NCBI GenBank assembly: GCA_951406725.2
Contig: OX597816.1
Span: forward strand, 97,030,001 to 97,094,000
From: Octopus vulgaris
Lineage: Eukaryota
Length of the DNA stretch: 64,000 nucleotides
Direction of reading: 5' to 3'
Shown one piece after another: positions 48,000 to 56,181 of this stretch. A model generated the notes under the pieces. That model was not told the origin of the DNA and ran no database searches. It saw only the letters and a program-made list of their open reading frames with translations. The position numbers and the translations under genes were made by a program. Each line of letters starts with the position of its first letter. The stretch's first letter is position 1.

Positions 48000-48019
48000 T
48001 AAAGATTCATATATATATA

Positions 48020-48477
48020 TTATAATAAAAGGGCTGAGTAAATATATATATTATTATATATATATACTGAACTCATTAGAAATAGTAGCTATAAAAAATA
48101 TATTTTTTAAACTATTTGCCACATTTCTTAATAGCTTAAAAAAATTCTAATACTTAAAATCTCATATAGTGTTTGCTCAATTCAACTCACGAAAGTATGG
48201 GGGTAAAGACATTAAAAAATCAAATGCAAAGGTTATTTGAGAACGTACGTTTCAAGATTAGTCAACTCGACATTTCTATCATCAGCTCAGAACTCCTTGG
48301 TTTGGATTTGAAAACACTGAAAGTGGGAGCATACCCTTTCGGCTTCTTATAGCTTCTGAAGATCTGCTCGAAACTAACAGTGCCAGCACACCCAAAATAT
48401 GCAGGCGAAGAATTTCTGCTCTCCCCTTTCCACCACCGTGGGTTAAAATCAGTAAACACTATGGTTTTTCGGTAAAA
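48020..48477 (-). repeat. Inverted partial copy of the 560-bp unit (5' inversion), with minus-strand hammerhead at ~48228-48297
   Basis: 48160-48477 is the reverse complement of the unit; 48020-48160 is a scrambled version merging into TA repeats. Confidence 0.9.
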
Positions 48478-51400
48478 AGTGTTTTCAAATCCAAACCAAG
48501 GAGTTCTGAGCTGATGATAGAAATGTCGAGTTGACTAATCTTGAAACGTACGTTCTCAAATAACCTTTGCATTTGATTTTTTAATGTCTTTACCCCCATA
48601 CTTTCGTGAGTTGAATTGAGCAAACACTATATGAGAGAGATTTTCTTTAAGTATTAGAAATAGTTTTAAAAAAGTTTTTTTAGCTACTATTTCTAATGAG
48701 TTCAGTATGTGGCAAAGTAATTTATTTTACTAAGCCCTTTTATATAATGTAATAATTTGAATTCGCCTTAAATGGTCCCTTTACATACTGAACACTTGGT
48801 GAAATTGATTAATAATTAATTAATTTTACCCTCAATTGTTGAAATTATAATTCATCTCTCTCTATTTAATGTTTCGGATTTTACCGAAAAAGCATAGTGT
48901 TTACTGATTTTAACCCACGCTGGTGGAAAGGGGAGAGCAGAAATTCTTCGCTTGCATATTTTGGGTGTGCTGGCACTGTTAGTTTCGAGCAGATCTTCAG
49001 AAGCGATAAGAAGCCGAAAGGGTATGCTCCCACTTTCAGTGTTTTCAAATCCAAACCAAGGAGTTCTGAGCTGATGATAGAAATGTCGAGTTGACTAATC
49101 TTGAAACGTACGTTCTCAAATAACCTTTGCATTTGATTTTTTAATGTCTTTACCCCCATACTTTCGTGAGTTGAATTGAGCAAACACTATATGAGAGAGA
49201 TTTTCTTTAAGTATTAGAAATAGTTTTAAAAAAGTTTTTTTTAGCTACTATTTCTAATGAGTTCAGTATGTGGCAAAGTAATTTATTTTACTAAGCCCTT
49301 TTATATAATGTAATAATTTGAATTCGCCTTAAATGGTCCCTTTACATACTGAACACTTGGTGAAATTGATTAATAATTAATTAATTTTACCCTCAATTGT
49401 TGAAATTATAATTCATCTCTCTCTATTTAATGTTTCGGATTTTACCGAAAAAGCATAGTGTTTACTGATTTTAACCCACGCTGGTGGAAAGGGGAGAGCA
49501 GAAATTCTTCGCTTGCATATTTTGGGTGTGCTGGCACTGTTAGTTTCGAGCAGATCTTCAGAAGCGATAAGAAGCCGAAAGGGTATGCTCCCACTTTCAG
49601 TGTTTTCAAATCCAAACCAAGGAGTTCTGAGCTGATGATAGAAATGTCGAGTTGACTAATCTTGAAACGTACGTTCTCAAATAACCTTTGCATTTGATTT
49701 TTTAATGTCTTTACCCCCATACTTTCGTGAGTTGAATTGAGCAAACACTATATGAGAGAGATTTTCTTTAAGTATTAGAAATAGTTTTAAAAAAGTTTTT
49801 TTAGCTACTATTTCTAATGAGTTCAGTATGTGGCAAAGTAATTTATGTTACTAAGCCCTTTTATATAATGTAATAATTTGAATTCGCCTTAAATGGTCCC
49901 TTTACATACTGAACACTTGGTGAAATTGATTAATAATTAATTAATTTTACCCTCAATTGTTGAAATTATAATTCATCTCTCTCTATTTAATGTTTCGGAT
50001 TTTACCGAAAAAGCATAGTGTTTACTGATTTTAACCCACGCTGGTGGAAAGGGGAGAGCAGAAATTCTTCGCTTGCATATTTTGGGTGTGCTGGCACTGT
50101 TAGTTTCGAGCAGATCTTCAGAAGCGATAAGAAACCGAAAGGGTATGCTCCCACTTTCAGTGTTTTCAAATCCAAACCAAGGAGTTCTGAGCTGATGATA
50201 GAAATGTCGAGTTGACTAATCTTGAAACGTACGTTCTCAAATAACCTTTGCATTTGATTTTTTAATGTCTTTACCCCCATACTTTCGTGAGTTGAATTGA
50301 GCAAACACTATATGAGAGAGATTTTCTTTAAGTATTAGAAATAGTTTTAAAAAAGTTTTTTTAGCTACTATTTCTAATGAGTTCAGTATGTGGCAAAGTA
50401 ATTTATTTTACTAAGCCCTTTTATATAATGTAATAATTTGAATTCGCCTTAAATGGTCCCTTTACATACTGAACACTTGGTGAAATTGATTAATAATTAA
50501 TTAATTTTACCCTCAATTGTTGAAATTATAATTCATCTCTCTCTATTCAATGTTTCGGATTTTACCGAAAAAGCATAGTGTTTACTGATTTTAACCCACG
50601 CTGGTGGAAAGGGGAGAGCAGAAATTCTTCGCTTGCATATTTTGGGTGTGCTGTCACTGTTAGTTTCGAGCAGATCTTCAGAAGCGATAAGAAGCCGAAA
50701 GGGTATGCTCCCACTTTCAGTGTTTTCAAATCCAAACCAAGGAGTTCTGAGCTGATGATAGAAATGTCGAGTTGACTAATCTTGAAACGTACGTTCTCAA
50801 ATAACCTTTGCATTTGATTTTTTAATGTCTTTACCCCCATACTTTCGTGAGTTGAATTGAGCAAACACTATATGAGAGAGATTTTCTTTAAGTATTAGAA
50901 ATAGTTTTAAAAAGTTTTTTTAGCTACTATTTCTAATGAGTTCAGTATGTGGCAAAGTAATTTATTTTACTAAGCCCTTTTATATAATGTAATAATTTGA
51001 ATTCGCCTTAAATGGTCCCTTTACATACTGAACACTTGGTGAAATTGATTAATAATTAATTAATTTTACCCTCAATTGTTGAAATTATAATTCATCTCTC
51101 TCTATTTAATGTTTCGGATTTTACCGAAAAAGCATAGTGTTTACTGATTTTAACCCACGCTGGTGGAAAGGGGAGAGCAGAAATTCTTCGCTTGCATATT
51201 TTGGGTGTGCTGGCACTGTTAGTTTCGAGCAGATCTTCAGAAGCGATAAGAAGCCGAAAGGGTATGCTCCCACTTTCAGTGTTTTCAAATCCAAACCAAG
51301 GAGTTCTGAGCTGATGATAGAAATGTCGAGTTGACTAATCTTGAAACGTACGTTCTCAAATAACCTTTGCATTTGATTTTTTAATGTCTTTACCCCCATA

Positions 51401-54400
51401 CTTTCGTGAGTTGAATTGAGCAAACACTATATGAGAGAGATTTTCTTTAAGTATTAGAAATAGTTTTAAAAAAGTTTTTTTAGCTACTATTTCTAATGAG
51501 TTCAGTATGTGGCAAAGTAATTTATGTTACTAAGCCCTTTTATATAATGTAATAATTTGAATTCGCCTTAAATGGTCCCTTTACATACTGAACACTTGGT
51601 GAAATTGATTAATAATTAATTAATTTTACCCTCAATTGTTGAAATTATAATTCATCTCTCTCTATTCAATGTTTCGGATTTTACCGAAAAAGCATAGTGT
51701 TTACTGATTTTAACCCACGCTGGTGGAAAGGGGAGAGCAGAAATTCTTCGCTTGCATATTTTGGGTGTGCTGGCACTGTTAGTTTCGAGCAGATCTTCAG
51801 AAGCGATAAGAAGCCGAAAGGGTATGCTCCCACTTTCAGTGTTTTCAAATCCAAACCAAGGAGTTCTGAGCTGATGATAGAAATGTCGAGTTGACTAATC
51901 TTGAAACGTACGTTCTCAAATAACCTTTGCATTTGATTTTTTAATGTCTTTACCCCCATACTTTCGTGAGTTGAATTGAGCAAACACTATATGAGAGAGA
52001 TTTTCTTTAAGTATTAGAAATAGTTTAAAAAAAGTTTTTTTAGCTACTATTTCTAATGAGTTCAGTATGTGGCAAAGTAATTTATTTTACTAAGCCCTTT
52101 TATATAATGTAATAATTTGAATTCGCCTTAAATGGTCCCTTTACATACTGAACACTTGGTGAAATTGATTAATAATTAATTAATTTTACCCTCAATTGTT
52201 GAAATTATAATTCATCTCTCTCTATTCAATGTTTCGGATTTTACCGAAAAAGCATAGTGTTTACTGATTTTAACCCACGCTGGTGGAAAGGGGAGAGCAG
52301 AAATTCTTCGCTTGCATATTTTGGGTGTGCTGGCACTGTTAGTTTCGAGCAGATCTTCAGAAGCGATAAGAAGCCGAAAGGGTATGCTCCCACTTTCAGT
52401 GTTTTCAAATCCAAACCAAGGAGTTCTGAGCTGATGATAGAAATGTCGAGTTGACTAATCTTGAAACGTACGTTCTCAAATAACCTTTGCATTTGATTTT
52501 TTAATGTCTTTACCCCCATACTTTCGTGAGTTGAATTGAGCAAACACTATATGAGAGAGATTTTCTTTAAGTATTAGAAATAGTTTTAAAAAAGTTTTTT
52601 TAGCTACTATTTCTAATGAGTTCAGTATGTGGCAAAGTAATTTATTTTACTAAGCCCTTTTATATAATGTAATAATTTGAATTCGCCTTAAATGGTCCCT
52701 TTACATACTGAACACTTGGTGAAATTGATTAATAATTAATTAATTTTACCCTCAATTGTTGAAATTATAATTCATCTCTCTCTATTTAATGTTTCGGATT
52801 TTACCGAAAAAGCATAGTGTTTACTGATTTTAACCCACGCTGGTGGAAAGGGGAGAGCAGAAATTCTTCGCTTGCATATTTTGGGTGTGCTGGCACTGTT
52901 AGTTTCGAGCAGATCTTCAGAAGCGATAAGAAGCCGAAAGGGTATGCTCCCACTTTCAGTGTTTTCAAATCCAAACCAAGGAGTTCTGAGCTGATGATAG
53001 AAATGTCGAGTTGACTAATCTTGAAACGTACGTTCTCAAATAACCTTTGCATTTGATTTTTTAATGTCTTTACCCCCATACTTTCGTGAGTTGGATTGAG
53101 CAAACACTATATGAGAGAGATTTTCTTTAAGTATTAGAAATACTTTTAAAAAAGTTTTTTTTAGCTACTATTTCTAATGAGTTCAGTATGTGGCAAAGTA
53201 ATTTATGTTACTAAGCCCTTTTATATAATGTAATAATTTGAATTCGCCTTAAATGGTCCCTTTACATACTGAACACTTGGTGAAATTGATTAATAATTAA
53301 TTAATTTTACCCTCAATTGTTGAAATTATAATTCATCTCTCTCTATTTAATGTTTCGGATTTTACCGAAAAAGCATAGTGTTTACTGATTTTAACCCACG
53401 CTGGTGGAAAGGGGAGAGCAGAAATTCTTCGCTTGCATATTTTGGGTGTGCTGGCACTGTTAGTTTCGAGCAGATCTTCAGAAGCGATAAGAAACCGAAA
53501 GGGTATGCTCCCACTTTCAGTGTTTTCAAATCCAAACCAAGGAGTTCTGAGCTGATGATAGAAATGTCGAGTTGACTAATCTTGAAACGTACGTTCTCAA
53601 ATAACCTTTGCATTTGATTTTTTAATGTCTTTACCCCCATACTTTCGTGAGTTGAATTGAGCAAACACTATATGAGAGAGATTTTCTTTAAGTATTAGAA
53701 ATAGTTTAAAAAAAGTTTTTTTAGCTACTATTTCTAATGAGTTCAGTATGTGGCAAAGTAATTTATTTTACTAAGCCCTTTTATATAATGTAATAATTTG
53801 AATTCGCCTTAAATGGTCCCTTTACATACTGAACACTTGGTGAAATTGATTAATAATTAATTAATTTTACCCTCAATTGTTGAAATTATAATTCATCTCT
53901 CTCTATTCAATGTTTCGGATTTTACCGAAAAAGCATAGTGTTTACTGATTTTAACCCACGCTGGTGGAAAGGGGAGAGCAGAAATTCTTCGCTTGCATAT
54001 TTTGGGTGTGCTGGCACTGTTAGTTTCGAGCAGATCTTCAGAAGCGATAAGAAGCCGAAAGGGTATGCTCCCACTTTCAGTGTTTTCAAATCCAAACCAA
54101 GGAGTTCTGAGCTGATGATAGAAATGTCGAGTTGACTAATCTTGAAACGTACGTTCTCAAATAACCTTTGTATTTGATTTTTTAATGTCTTTACCCCCAT
54201 ACTTTCGTGAGTTGAATTGAGCAAACACTATATGAGAGAGATTTTCTTTAAGTATTAGAAATAGTTTAAAAAAAGTTTTTTTAGCTACTATTTCTAATGA
54301 GTTCAGTATGTGGCAAAGTAATTTATTTTACTAAGCCCTTTTATATAATGTAATAATTTGAATTCGCCTTAAATGGTCCCTTTACATACTGAACACTTGG

Positions 54401-56123
54401 TGAAATTGATTAATAATTAATTAATTTTACCCTCAATTGTTGAAATTATAATTCATCTCTCTCTATTTAATGTTTCGGATTTTACCGAAAAAGCATAGTG
54501 TTTACTGATTTTAACCCACGCTGGTGGAAAGGGGAGAGCAGAAATTCTTCGCTTGCATATTTTGGGTGTGCTGGCACTGTTAGTTTCGAGCAGATCTTCA
54601 GAAGCGATAAGAAGCCGAAAGGGTATGCTCCCACTTTCAGTGTTTTCAAATCCAAACCAAGGAGTTCTGAGCTGATGATAGAAATGTCGAGTTGACTAAT
54701 CTTGAAACGTACGTTCTCAAATAACCTTTGCATTTGATTTTTTAATGTCTTTACCCCCATACTTTCGTGAGTTGAATTGAGCAAACACTATATGAGAGAG
54801 ATTTTCTTTAAGTATTAGAAATAGTTTTAAAAAGTTTTTTTAGCTACTATTTCTAATGAGTTCAGTATGTGGCAAAGTAATTTATTTTACTAAGCCCTTT
54901 TATATAATGTAATAATTTGAATTCGCCTTAAATGGTCCCTTTACATACTGAACACTTGGTGAAATTGATTAATAATTAATTAATTTTACCCTCAATTGTT
55001 GAAATTATAATTCATCTCTCTCTATTTAATGTTTCGGATTTTACCGAAAAAGCATAGTGTTTACTGATTTTAACCCACGCTGGTGGAAAGGGGAGAGCAG
55101 AAATTCTTCGCTTGCATATTTTGGGTGTGCTGGCACTGTTAGTTTCGAGCAGATCTTCAGAAGCGATAAGAAACCGAAAGGGTATGCTCCCACTTTCAGT
55201 GTTTTCAAATCCAAACCAAGGAGTTCTGAGCTGATGATAGAAATGTCGAGTTGACTAATCTTGAAACGTACGTTCTCAAATAACCTTTGCATTTGATTTT
55301 TTAATGTCTTTACCCCCATACTTTCGTGAGTTGGATTGAGCAAACACTATATGAGAGAGATTTTCTTTAAGTATTAGAAATAGTTTTAAAAAAGTTTTTT
55401 TAGCTACTATTTCTAATGAGTTCAGTATGTGGCAAAGTAATTTATTTTACTAAGCCCTTTTATATAATGTAATAATTTGAATTCGCCTTAAATGGTCCCT
55501 TTACATACTGAACACTTGGTGAAATTGATTAATAATTAATTAATTTTACCCTCAATTGTTGAAATTATAATTCATCTCTCTCTATTTAATGTTTCGGATT
55601 TTACCGAAAAAGCATAGTGTTTACTGATTTTAACCCACGCTGGTGGAAAGGGGAGAGCAGAAATTCTTCGCTTGCATATTTTGGGTGTGCTGGCACTGTT
55701 AGTTTCGAGCAGATCTTCAGAAGCGATAAGAAGCCGAAAGGGTATGCTCCCACTTTCAGTGTTTTCAAATCCAAACCAAGGAGTTCTGAGCTGATGATAG
55801 AAATGTCGAGTTGACTAATCTTGAAACGTACGTTCTCAAATAACCTTTGCATTTGATTTTTTAATGTCTTTACCCCCATACTTTCGTGAGTTGAATTGAG
55901 CAAACACTATATGAGAGAGATTTTCTTTAAGTATTAGAAATAGTTTTAAAAAAGTTTTTTTTTAGCTACTATTTCTAATGAGTTCAGTATGTGGCAAAGT
56001 AATTTATTTTACTAAGCCCTTTTATATAATGTAATAATTTGAATTCGCCTTAAATGGTCCCTTTACATACTGAACACTTGGTGAAATTGATTAATAATTA
56101 ATTAATTTTACCCTCAATTGTTG

Positions 56124-56126
<3 letters not shown>
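48478..56126 (+). repeat. Tandem array of ~13.7 x 560-bp near-identical units, each with a hammerhead (retrozyme-like)
   Basis: Period 559-561 bp (marker ORF starts at 48897, 49458 ... 55617); only a few substitutions seen between units; ends in (TA)n. Confidence 0.97.
48498..48567 (+). ncRNA. Type I hammerhead ribozyme, first of 14 plus-strand copies (next CTGATGA at 49071)
   Basis: AAGG-agttc-TGAG-CTGATGA-t-AGA-aat-GTC-gagtt-GAC-taa-TCT-t-GAAA-C-GTAC-G-TT^CTCA-aataa-CCTT; palindromic AACGTACGTT stem III; predicted GUU cleavage after 48554. Confidence 0.75.

Positions 56127-56181
<55 letters not shown>

Follow-up and report, generated by a model that had tools for sequence, protein, structure and literature searches.

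The 64,000-nt window analysed here is the whole stretch at positions 97,030,001 to 97,094,000 of contig OX597816.1 in the Octopus vulgaris assembly GCA_951406725.2; window positions are counted from its first letter. Between 48020 and 56126 it holds a tandem array of 560-bp units, in which a short inverted arm lies back to back with a long direct arm between two TA microsatellite tracts (Table 1). Each unit carries the motif of a type I hammerhead ribozyme. The array is a single insertion from a protein-free family of 560-nt repeats that is dispersed in the genome, conserves a hammerhead motif and ends at two fixed points in (TA)n, and on balance this family is probably a retrozyme that lacks long terminal repeats (non-LTR retrozyme), which a Penelope-like element (PLE) would have copied using a predicted circle of RNA as template.

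The motif TGAG-CTGATGA-(25 nt)-GAAA-CGTACG-TT^CTCA, where ^ marks the predicted cut, is present 14 times on the forward strand (48507 to 55787) with a spacing of 559-561 bp and once on the reverse strand (48289), all 15 copies being identical. The original prediction, made from this stretch alone, had described near-identical units with this motif, a cut after 48554, a 5' inverted partial copy and TA-rich flanks, here (AT)6 and (AT)26, and agrees with the sequence on all of these; its extension of stem I also holds, with a small shift of register. Between the 13 full units there are differences at 0-7 positions (mean 2.9), and the inverted arm has at least 6 private substitutions. Scrambling affects the outer 130 nt of this arm (window 48020-48160), where the TA-rich insertions and short repeats would fit repeated slippage during priming. 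No open reading frame of 120 amino acids (aa) lies within the array, and the array has no match to PLE proteins. Folded as a circle, the 560-nt unit has a predicted minimum free energy of -147 kcal/mol (z -6.3 against 40 shuffles; antisense z -6.0).

Table 1. Features of the array in the window, and related families at loci (L-numbers) of the same genome
Feature	Position or loci	Strand	Remarks
Left (AT)6, remnant of TA-microsatellite target	48009-48020		element border ambiguous by a few bases
Inverted arm	48020-48477	-	outer end at P site (unit position ~195), inner end at unit position 325
Inverted-arm hammerhead motif	48238-48289	-
Direct arm	48478-56126	+	77-nt partial unit (starts at unit position 484), 13 full units of 559-561 bp, last partial unit ending at D site
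First type I hammerhead motif	48507-48558	+	recurs in each unit
Stem I, first motif	48507-48510 / 48555-48558	+
Core CTGATGA	48511-48517	+
U10.1 and U11.1, first motif	48518 and 48542	+
Core GAAA	48543-48546	+
Stem III (palindrome)	48546-48553	+	predicted cut after 48554 (GUU)
Reference monomer, cut to cut	48555-49114	+	position 1 is 48555
Outer helix of 3' module	48701-48710 with 48783-48792	+	encloses P site with its hairpin
P hairpin (GGC..GCC, then C) and putative proximal start site	48711-48751	+	site 10-14 nt downstream; insertion left end (48020)
D hairpin (GGU..ACC, then C) and putative distal start site	48798-48844	+	site 13 nt downstream; in last unit, insertion right end (56126)
Right (AT)26 of TA-microsatellite target	56127-56178
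Sister family, 562-nt unit	L252, L258, L270		own hammerhead, GUC
Sister family, ~590-nt unit	L221, L246		own hammerhead, GUA
Sister family, ~600-nt unit	L154, L162, L172		own hammerhead, GUC
Sister family, only module seen	L230, L163
PLE family, 781-aa frame	L110-L125 (e.g. L113:1368-6060)		upstream 479-aa frame without Pfam family
PLE family, 775-aa frame	L299-L327		many identical copies; pseudo-LTR (pLTR) rich in simple repeats; 36-nt tail

The array is not a mere local satellite, since the genome contains 1,376 exact matches to the motif pattern, and because the reversed control gave 0 the motif is not a product of chance. A search with the unit returned 1,578 candidates, of which 40 were scored. 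Besides the array of the window, the 89 loci examined comprise the remaining 39 of the scored ones, 45 taken in contig order from among the first 100 matches to the pattern, and 4 diverged copies, with overlapping fetches of one locus counted once. The end counts leave out a tandemly duplicated complex locus (L213) and pieces of neighbouring insertions in L025, L054, L056 and L202, while the counts on cut-site stops, haplotype clusters and template-level variants also omit L037. The copies are dispersed, range from monomers to multimers and have no LTR layout, no separate search for a primer binding site or polypurine tract having been made.

Among the 88 loci that were classified, 65 have two arms placed back to back and 23 have a single arm, and both outer ends of the two-armed loci are 3' ends of the sense strand. 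These ends fall at two sites of the unit, a proximal one (P, unit position ~190-205) and a distal one (D, ~290-295), 98 nt apart, with unit positions counted from 48555, the base that follows the predicted cut. One end of each kind was found in 55 of the 65 two-armed loci, against two D ends in 1, two P ends in 0 and one other end in 9 (P+D versus same-site, p 1.6e-15); with L031 and L037 taken as a duplicate pair, 54 of 64 independent loci are P+D. The one-armed loci end at P in 12 cases, at D in 9 and elsewhere in 2. The dispersal of a retrozyme-type element in (TA)n, as originally proposed, is seen in the 137 of 142 P or D ends that adjoin (TA)4 or longer. A target site duplication is unreadable inside such tracts. 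With regard to the inner ends, their scatter over the unit rules out classical twin priming of the L1 type, in which the proximal primer would mark the end of the distal arm. The arms overlap by at least one base at 39 of 67 junctions, and at 6 of the 67 both inner ends lie at one position.

This anatomy resembles that of PLEs. According to the available text of PMC8557442, PLE insertions consist of partial tandem copies together with an inverted copy truncated at its 5' end, and often carry a 30-40-bp tail at one end only. The PLE protein of the anole, a predicted dimer, was shown in vitro to cut AT-rich DNA on both strands and to extend both (PMC11167929, available text); it uses two internal starts beside a stem-loop, the tail being the stretch between them. 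Because the ends of the octopus insertions match both this tail and this two-start behaviour, the best reading of P and D is as a pair of start sites that bound a 98-nt tail, and the PLE-type mobilisation that the original prediction had suggested gains support from the pairing of P with D.

Each of the two sites lies next to a hairpin of its own. Unit positions 124-295 are common to four other families at 68-76% identity, and an alignment of this module (12 sequences, 5 families) presents an outer helix around a hairpin closed by GG(C/U)..(G/A)CC right before P, followed by a second hairpin, GGU..ACC, right before D. The pairs are formed in 96% of 348 cells and both sides have changed in 5 of 29 pairs, compared with 34-44% pairing in slid controls, although these control figures overstate the support because the structure was drawn from one of the 12 sequences and the rows are related. 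RNAalifold gave the same helices unaided. The outer helix shows compensatory and G.U changes between families, and the G.U changes in the module point to the hammerhead strand. In the sister families the ends lie mostly 5-20 nt past the same hairpins, and where both strands have an end P is paired with D. The presence of a separate hairpin at either start suggests that the enzyme may place one subunit at each of them. Three of these families have their own hammerheads, 275-280 nt upstream of the end of the D hairpin, with P and D ends as in the 560-nt family, and every family followed via the module proved non-coding.

All the invariant core bases of a type I hammerhead (C3 U4 G5 A6 G8 A9, G12 A13 A14 A15.1, U16.1 and H17) are present in the unit motif, which is made up of a 4-bp stem I with its extension, a long and interrupted stem II, a 2-bp stem III with a palindromic loop, and the cleavage triplet GUU. 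As the original prediction expected, the core is conserved across genomic copies: over the 89 loci the 11 invariant positions were never altered as majority base, and 5 changes were seen in 2,729 single-copy calls, figures that are biased because 45 of the loci had been picked by a pattern requiring an intact core. Inherited changes in the core region are limited to N7 in 5 loci, H17 in 2 (U to A) and 10.1/11.1 in 13. When the search pattern was anchored on sequence beyond the core, 712 matches were obtained, with an invariant base broken in 2 of the first 100 listed, judged by eye. Stronger evidence for a hammerhead than these within-family counts comes from the sister families, three of which retain the core at an equal distance from the hairpins and have changed stems I and III in compensated form, with TGAG/CTCG, CCCATG/CATGGG or CCTACG/CGTAGG in stem I and CAGGCTG, CGCGCG or CGTACG in stem III. 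Given a core that is near-unchanged across loci and compensated stems in the sister families, the hammerhead is read as being under selection. The palindrome of stem III is retained in 3 of the 4 families, which would fit cleavage in a dimer form, though not one that every family needs.

Several observations weigh against this ribozyme. The Rfam search suggested in the original prediction returned no hammerhead match even at E<=10, and the proposed folding, while confirming a strongly folded unit, leaves stem III unformed. Positions 10.1 and 11.1 form U.U instead of the G10.1-C11.1 pair, which is highly conserved in PLE hammerheads according to the available text of PMC4209133 and is absent from all 89 loci (U.U in 76, A.A in 8, U-A in 3, G.U in 2). 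The triplet is GUU, and the palindrome permits A14 to pair with U17. Among the 39 loci picked by whole-unit score, the core is no different from the rest of the unit (1/27 versus 25/533), and of nine predicted Xenopus retrozyme dimers one was cleaved in vitro, according to the available part of a preprint (10.64898/2026.07.22.740005). The axolotl hammerhead HHR_Amex2 also has U.U at the base of stem II and a 2-bp stem III, yet it is active (PMC7229834, available text). Cleavage, a dimer form and circular RNA stand, for the octopus family, as likely predictions from sequence.

The template can be narrowed down from the arms themselves. Arms do not stop at the predicted cut, as 1 of the 121 that reach it ends within 4 nt, and most exceed the length of a cut monomer, which rules out a cleaved linear monomer and leaves a circle or an uncut multimer. 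The units of one locus are almost alike, with 882 consensus differences shared by every copy of the locus concerned, as opposed to 378 variable positions (120,161 calls, 81 loci). The median difference between the two arms of a locus is 0.39%, while the nearest other locus is 0.65% and the median locus 3.1% away (58 loci). A trace of A-to-G editing among the template-level variants was not supported (11 A>G versus 8 T>C, p 0.36). Given mobilisation by a PLE, a circle seems quite probable as the template, because the ribozyme is conserved and arms of at least two units are present in 13 of 37 haplotype clusters. Some of the data speak against a shared circular template. In 8 of the 58 loci the arms are further from each other than from another locus; the window's own arms differ at 14 of 403 positions, partly via the scrambling; fold-back can also produce arm identity; and two family alleles are mixed within one arm in L022 and L024. 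This mixing is also what would be expected if the two-start insertion by a PLE used uncut multi-unit linear transcripts from a few long source arrays, with a hammerhead that is weak or used otherwise and no need for a circle. Such a template is consistent with the absence of cut-site stops as well as a circle is, and with a core that looks weak (U.U, GUU), and in vitro the anole PLE dispenses with ribozyme cleavage and uses uncut RNA as its main template (PMC11167929, available text). It would leave unaccounted for the retention of hammerhead core and stems across four families that are just 67-76% alike, and each of the 13 clusters with long arms would require a separate long source. The longest array seen, that of the window, was no such source: no other locus examined has its recurrent unit variants 172G, 313C and 459A, which also rules it out as the origin of the other copies. 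Uncut transcripts are hence considered an unlikely template, though a serious one.

The length of the window array calls for a separate account. Its direct arm (7,654 nt) is the longest seen and more than twice the next (3,507 nt), while arm medians are 575-675 nt. Unit pairs that share a private variant are separated by a multiple of three units in 10 of 16 cases (4.5 expected; p 0.008, uncorrected and for one of six periods), and the duplicate pair L031/L037, which goes back to a single insertion copied together with its flanks to a distance of 80 kb, shows opposite orientations of the interior that lies between the inverted arms, and a difference of one unit. This three-unit bias and the change after insertion in L031/L037 indicate later expansion at the DNA level, so that the whole 13.7-unit array does not hold up as one rolling-circle product, as the original prediction had it, and its unusual length is probably due in part to such expansion; a trimeric circle or polishing artefacts are other possible causes of the three-unit pattern. 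The same two observations would suit a satellite that arose from a short PLE-type insertion and grew by unequal crossing-over alone, with the hammerhead as a passenger, a route that the available part of the preprint by Li et al. (10.64898/2026.07.22.740005) proposes. It accounts for extra units only, however: two complete hammerheads lie in one arm at 17 of 45 contig-order loci, template-level variants are common to both arms (45 cases family-rare, 32 across arms), and each locus has its own PLE-type ends, which together make this explanation improbable. More improbable still is that the long array is an assembly expansion or that the family is a rolling-circle DNA element of the Helitron type. 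The excess of the 7,654-nt arm over all others and the mosaic variants that consensus polishing could yield can be cited in its favour, but the units are non-identical, multi-unit arms occur at many other loci, the outer ends are both 3' ends of the sense strand and fall at two sites, unlike the single 5'-to-3' anatomy of a Helitron, and the G.U covariation indicates RNA.

For the preferred reading, a retrozyme copied from a circle, the following course may be proposed. Neighbouring hammerheads would cut a read-through transcript of at least two units, probably best as a dimer, into 560-nt monomers, which a host ligase would close. A PLE protein, probably a dimer, would bind the 3' module and cut both strands of (TA)n, one strand then priming 10-14 nt past the P hairpin and the other 13 nt past the D hairpin. 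Both cDNAs would extend for a median of ~600 nt, past the cut site, and would be joined head to head, often via a 1-8 nt overlap; at the window locus the direct arm was probably lengthened later in DNA. A more general proposal is put forward tentatively, at somewhat less than even chances: at least four hammerhead retrozyme families would carry a twin-hairpin landing pad, and a dimeric Penelope-type enzyme would read one RNA circle with one subunit per hairpin and cut strand, making two opposed rolling-circle cDNAs at once.

With regard to possible partners, the genome holds two young autonomous PLE families with intact frames of 781 and 775 aa containing reverse transcriptase and GIY-YIG domains, found in a search with PF01541 that covered the best-scoring candidates of a large PLE load. 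Both have a TA target, as does the retrozyme, and two ends 36-37 nt apart. The 781-aa family, which we take to be Neptune-like, has a CxxxxCxxC linker and a 37-nt tail, and its pLTR contains a minimal hammerhead with a U3-A8 core variant and a palindromic stem III; in the 775-aa family a pattern search found no hammerhead. The D end bears some likeness to the short end of the 775-aa family, but as the best of 10 comparisons (p 0.012) it was not significant after correction. Neither young family shares sequence with the unit, and blastn and a module profile over 90 PLE loci, the best-scoring candidates only, found no autonomous element carrying the module, which tells against the proposed mobilisation. 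The few profile matches at PLE loci are taken to be non-autonomous insertions in the neighbourhood. PLEs and several retrozyme families are stacked side by side in common TA tracts (L128:6250-7600, L163:1030-1680, L172). The genome is also rich in further hammerhead-like motifs, unrelated and in some cases tandem, in the flanks of L093, L122, L154, L164, L182, L262, L264, L280, L281 and L285.

PLE mobilisation of retrozymes has already been proposed, with pLTR likeness as support, in the available part of 10.64898/2026.07.22.740005, and the route of animal retrozymes back into the genome has so far been inferred from co-occurrence and such likeness, while the making of tandem, inverted, one-tailed PLE insertions is still an open question. 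From its sequence, the octopus element is likely a new family of non-LTR retrozyme, and its insertions, which bear an unusually clear trace of their mobilisation, give direct genomic evidence for two-site priming by PLEs. A literature search in which most matches were judged by title-level listing, and which did not cover the supplementary family lists of PMC7229834 and the Li preprint, found neither a hammerhead retrozyme family reported in octopus or other cephalopods nor a back-to-back, two-end insertion anatomy reported for retrozymes. The family logs the insertion event hundreds of times with little decay, at a fixed target and with two fixed starts, one per arm, each with a conserved hairpin. 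Both questions become reducible to a small experiment with one short RNA, a (TA)n duplex and the intact PLE frames of the same genome. If true, the twin-hairpin landing pad would explain the tandem, inverted, one-tailed anatomy of PLEs generally, with the 560-nt unit as a minimal substrate.

Compared with the metazoan non-LTR retrozymes, as far as these are described in the available text of PMC7229834 and 10.64898/2026.07.22.740005, the family shares non-coding tandem units of low GC content with one type I hammerhead each, a dispersal from monomers to multimers, a strongly folded unit and PLEs in the same genome. Its size is also in range: published units span 51-972 bp, with a mean of 650 in ray-finned fish (Li et al. 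2026, 10.64898/2026.07.22.740005), so that the original description of a unit larger than typical retrozymes is not supported. Cleavage and circles, known for those retrozymes, are predictions for the 560-nt family; conversely, (TA)n targeting, back-to-back arms and two fixed ends are features of the octopus family that the available text of these two sources does not describe. Furthermore, 24 of 57 Xenopus retrozyme families match Repbase elements, nearly all of them PLEs, while for the 560-nt family no match to an autonomous pLTR was found among the best-scoring PLE loci. The closest parallel for the ribozyme is axolotl HHR_Amex2 of Rtz_353 (PMC7229834, available text), which shares the tetraloop-capped stem III of two pairs and the U.U mismatch where stem II meets the core, and whose cleavage is weak in monomers (22% in 1 h) and improves in dimer form; the octopus family differs from it in unit size (350 nt in Rtz_353), GUU triplet and long interrupted stem II. 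With endonuclease-positive (EN+) PLEs, including PAc of the green anole, the family shares tandem and inverted 5'-truncated copies, a tail at one end and an AT-rich or (TA)n target (PMC8557442 and PMC11167929, available text), and with PAc in particular two internal starts beside a stem-loop and the extension of both target strands. It differs from these PLEs in having no open reading frame, a tail of 98 nt instead of 30-40 nt, a unit repeated many times, a hairpin of its own for each start and one start per arm.

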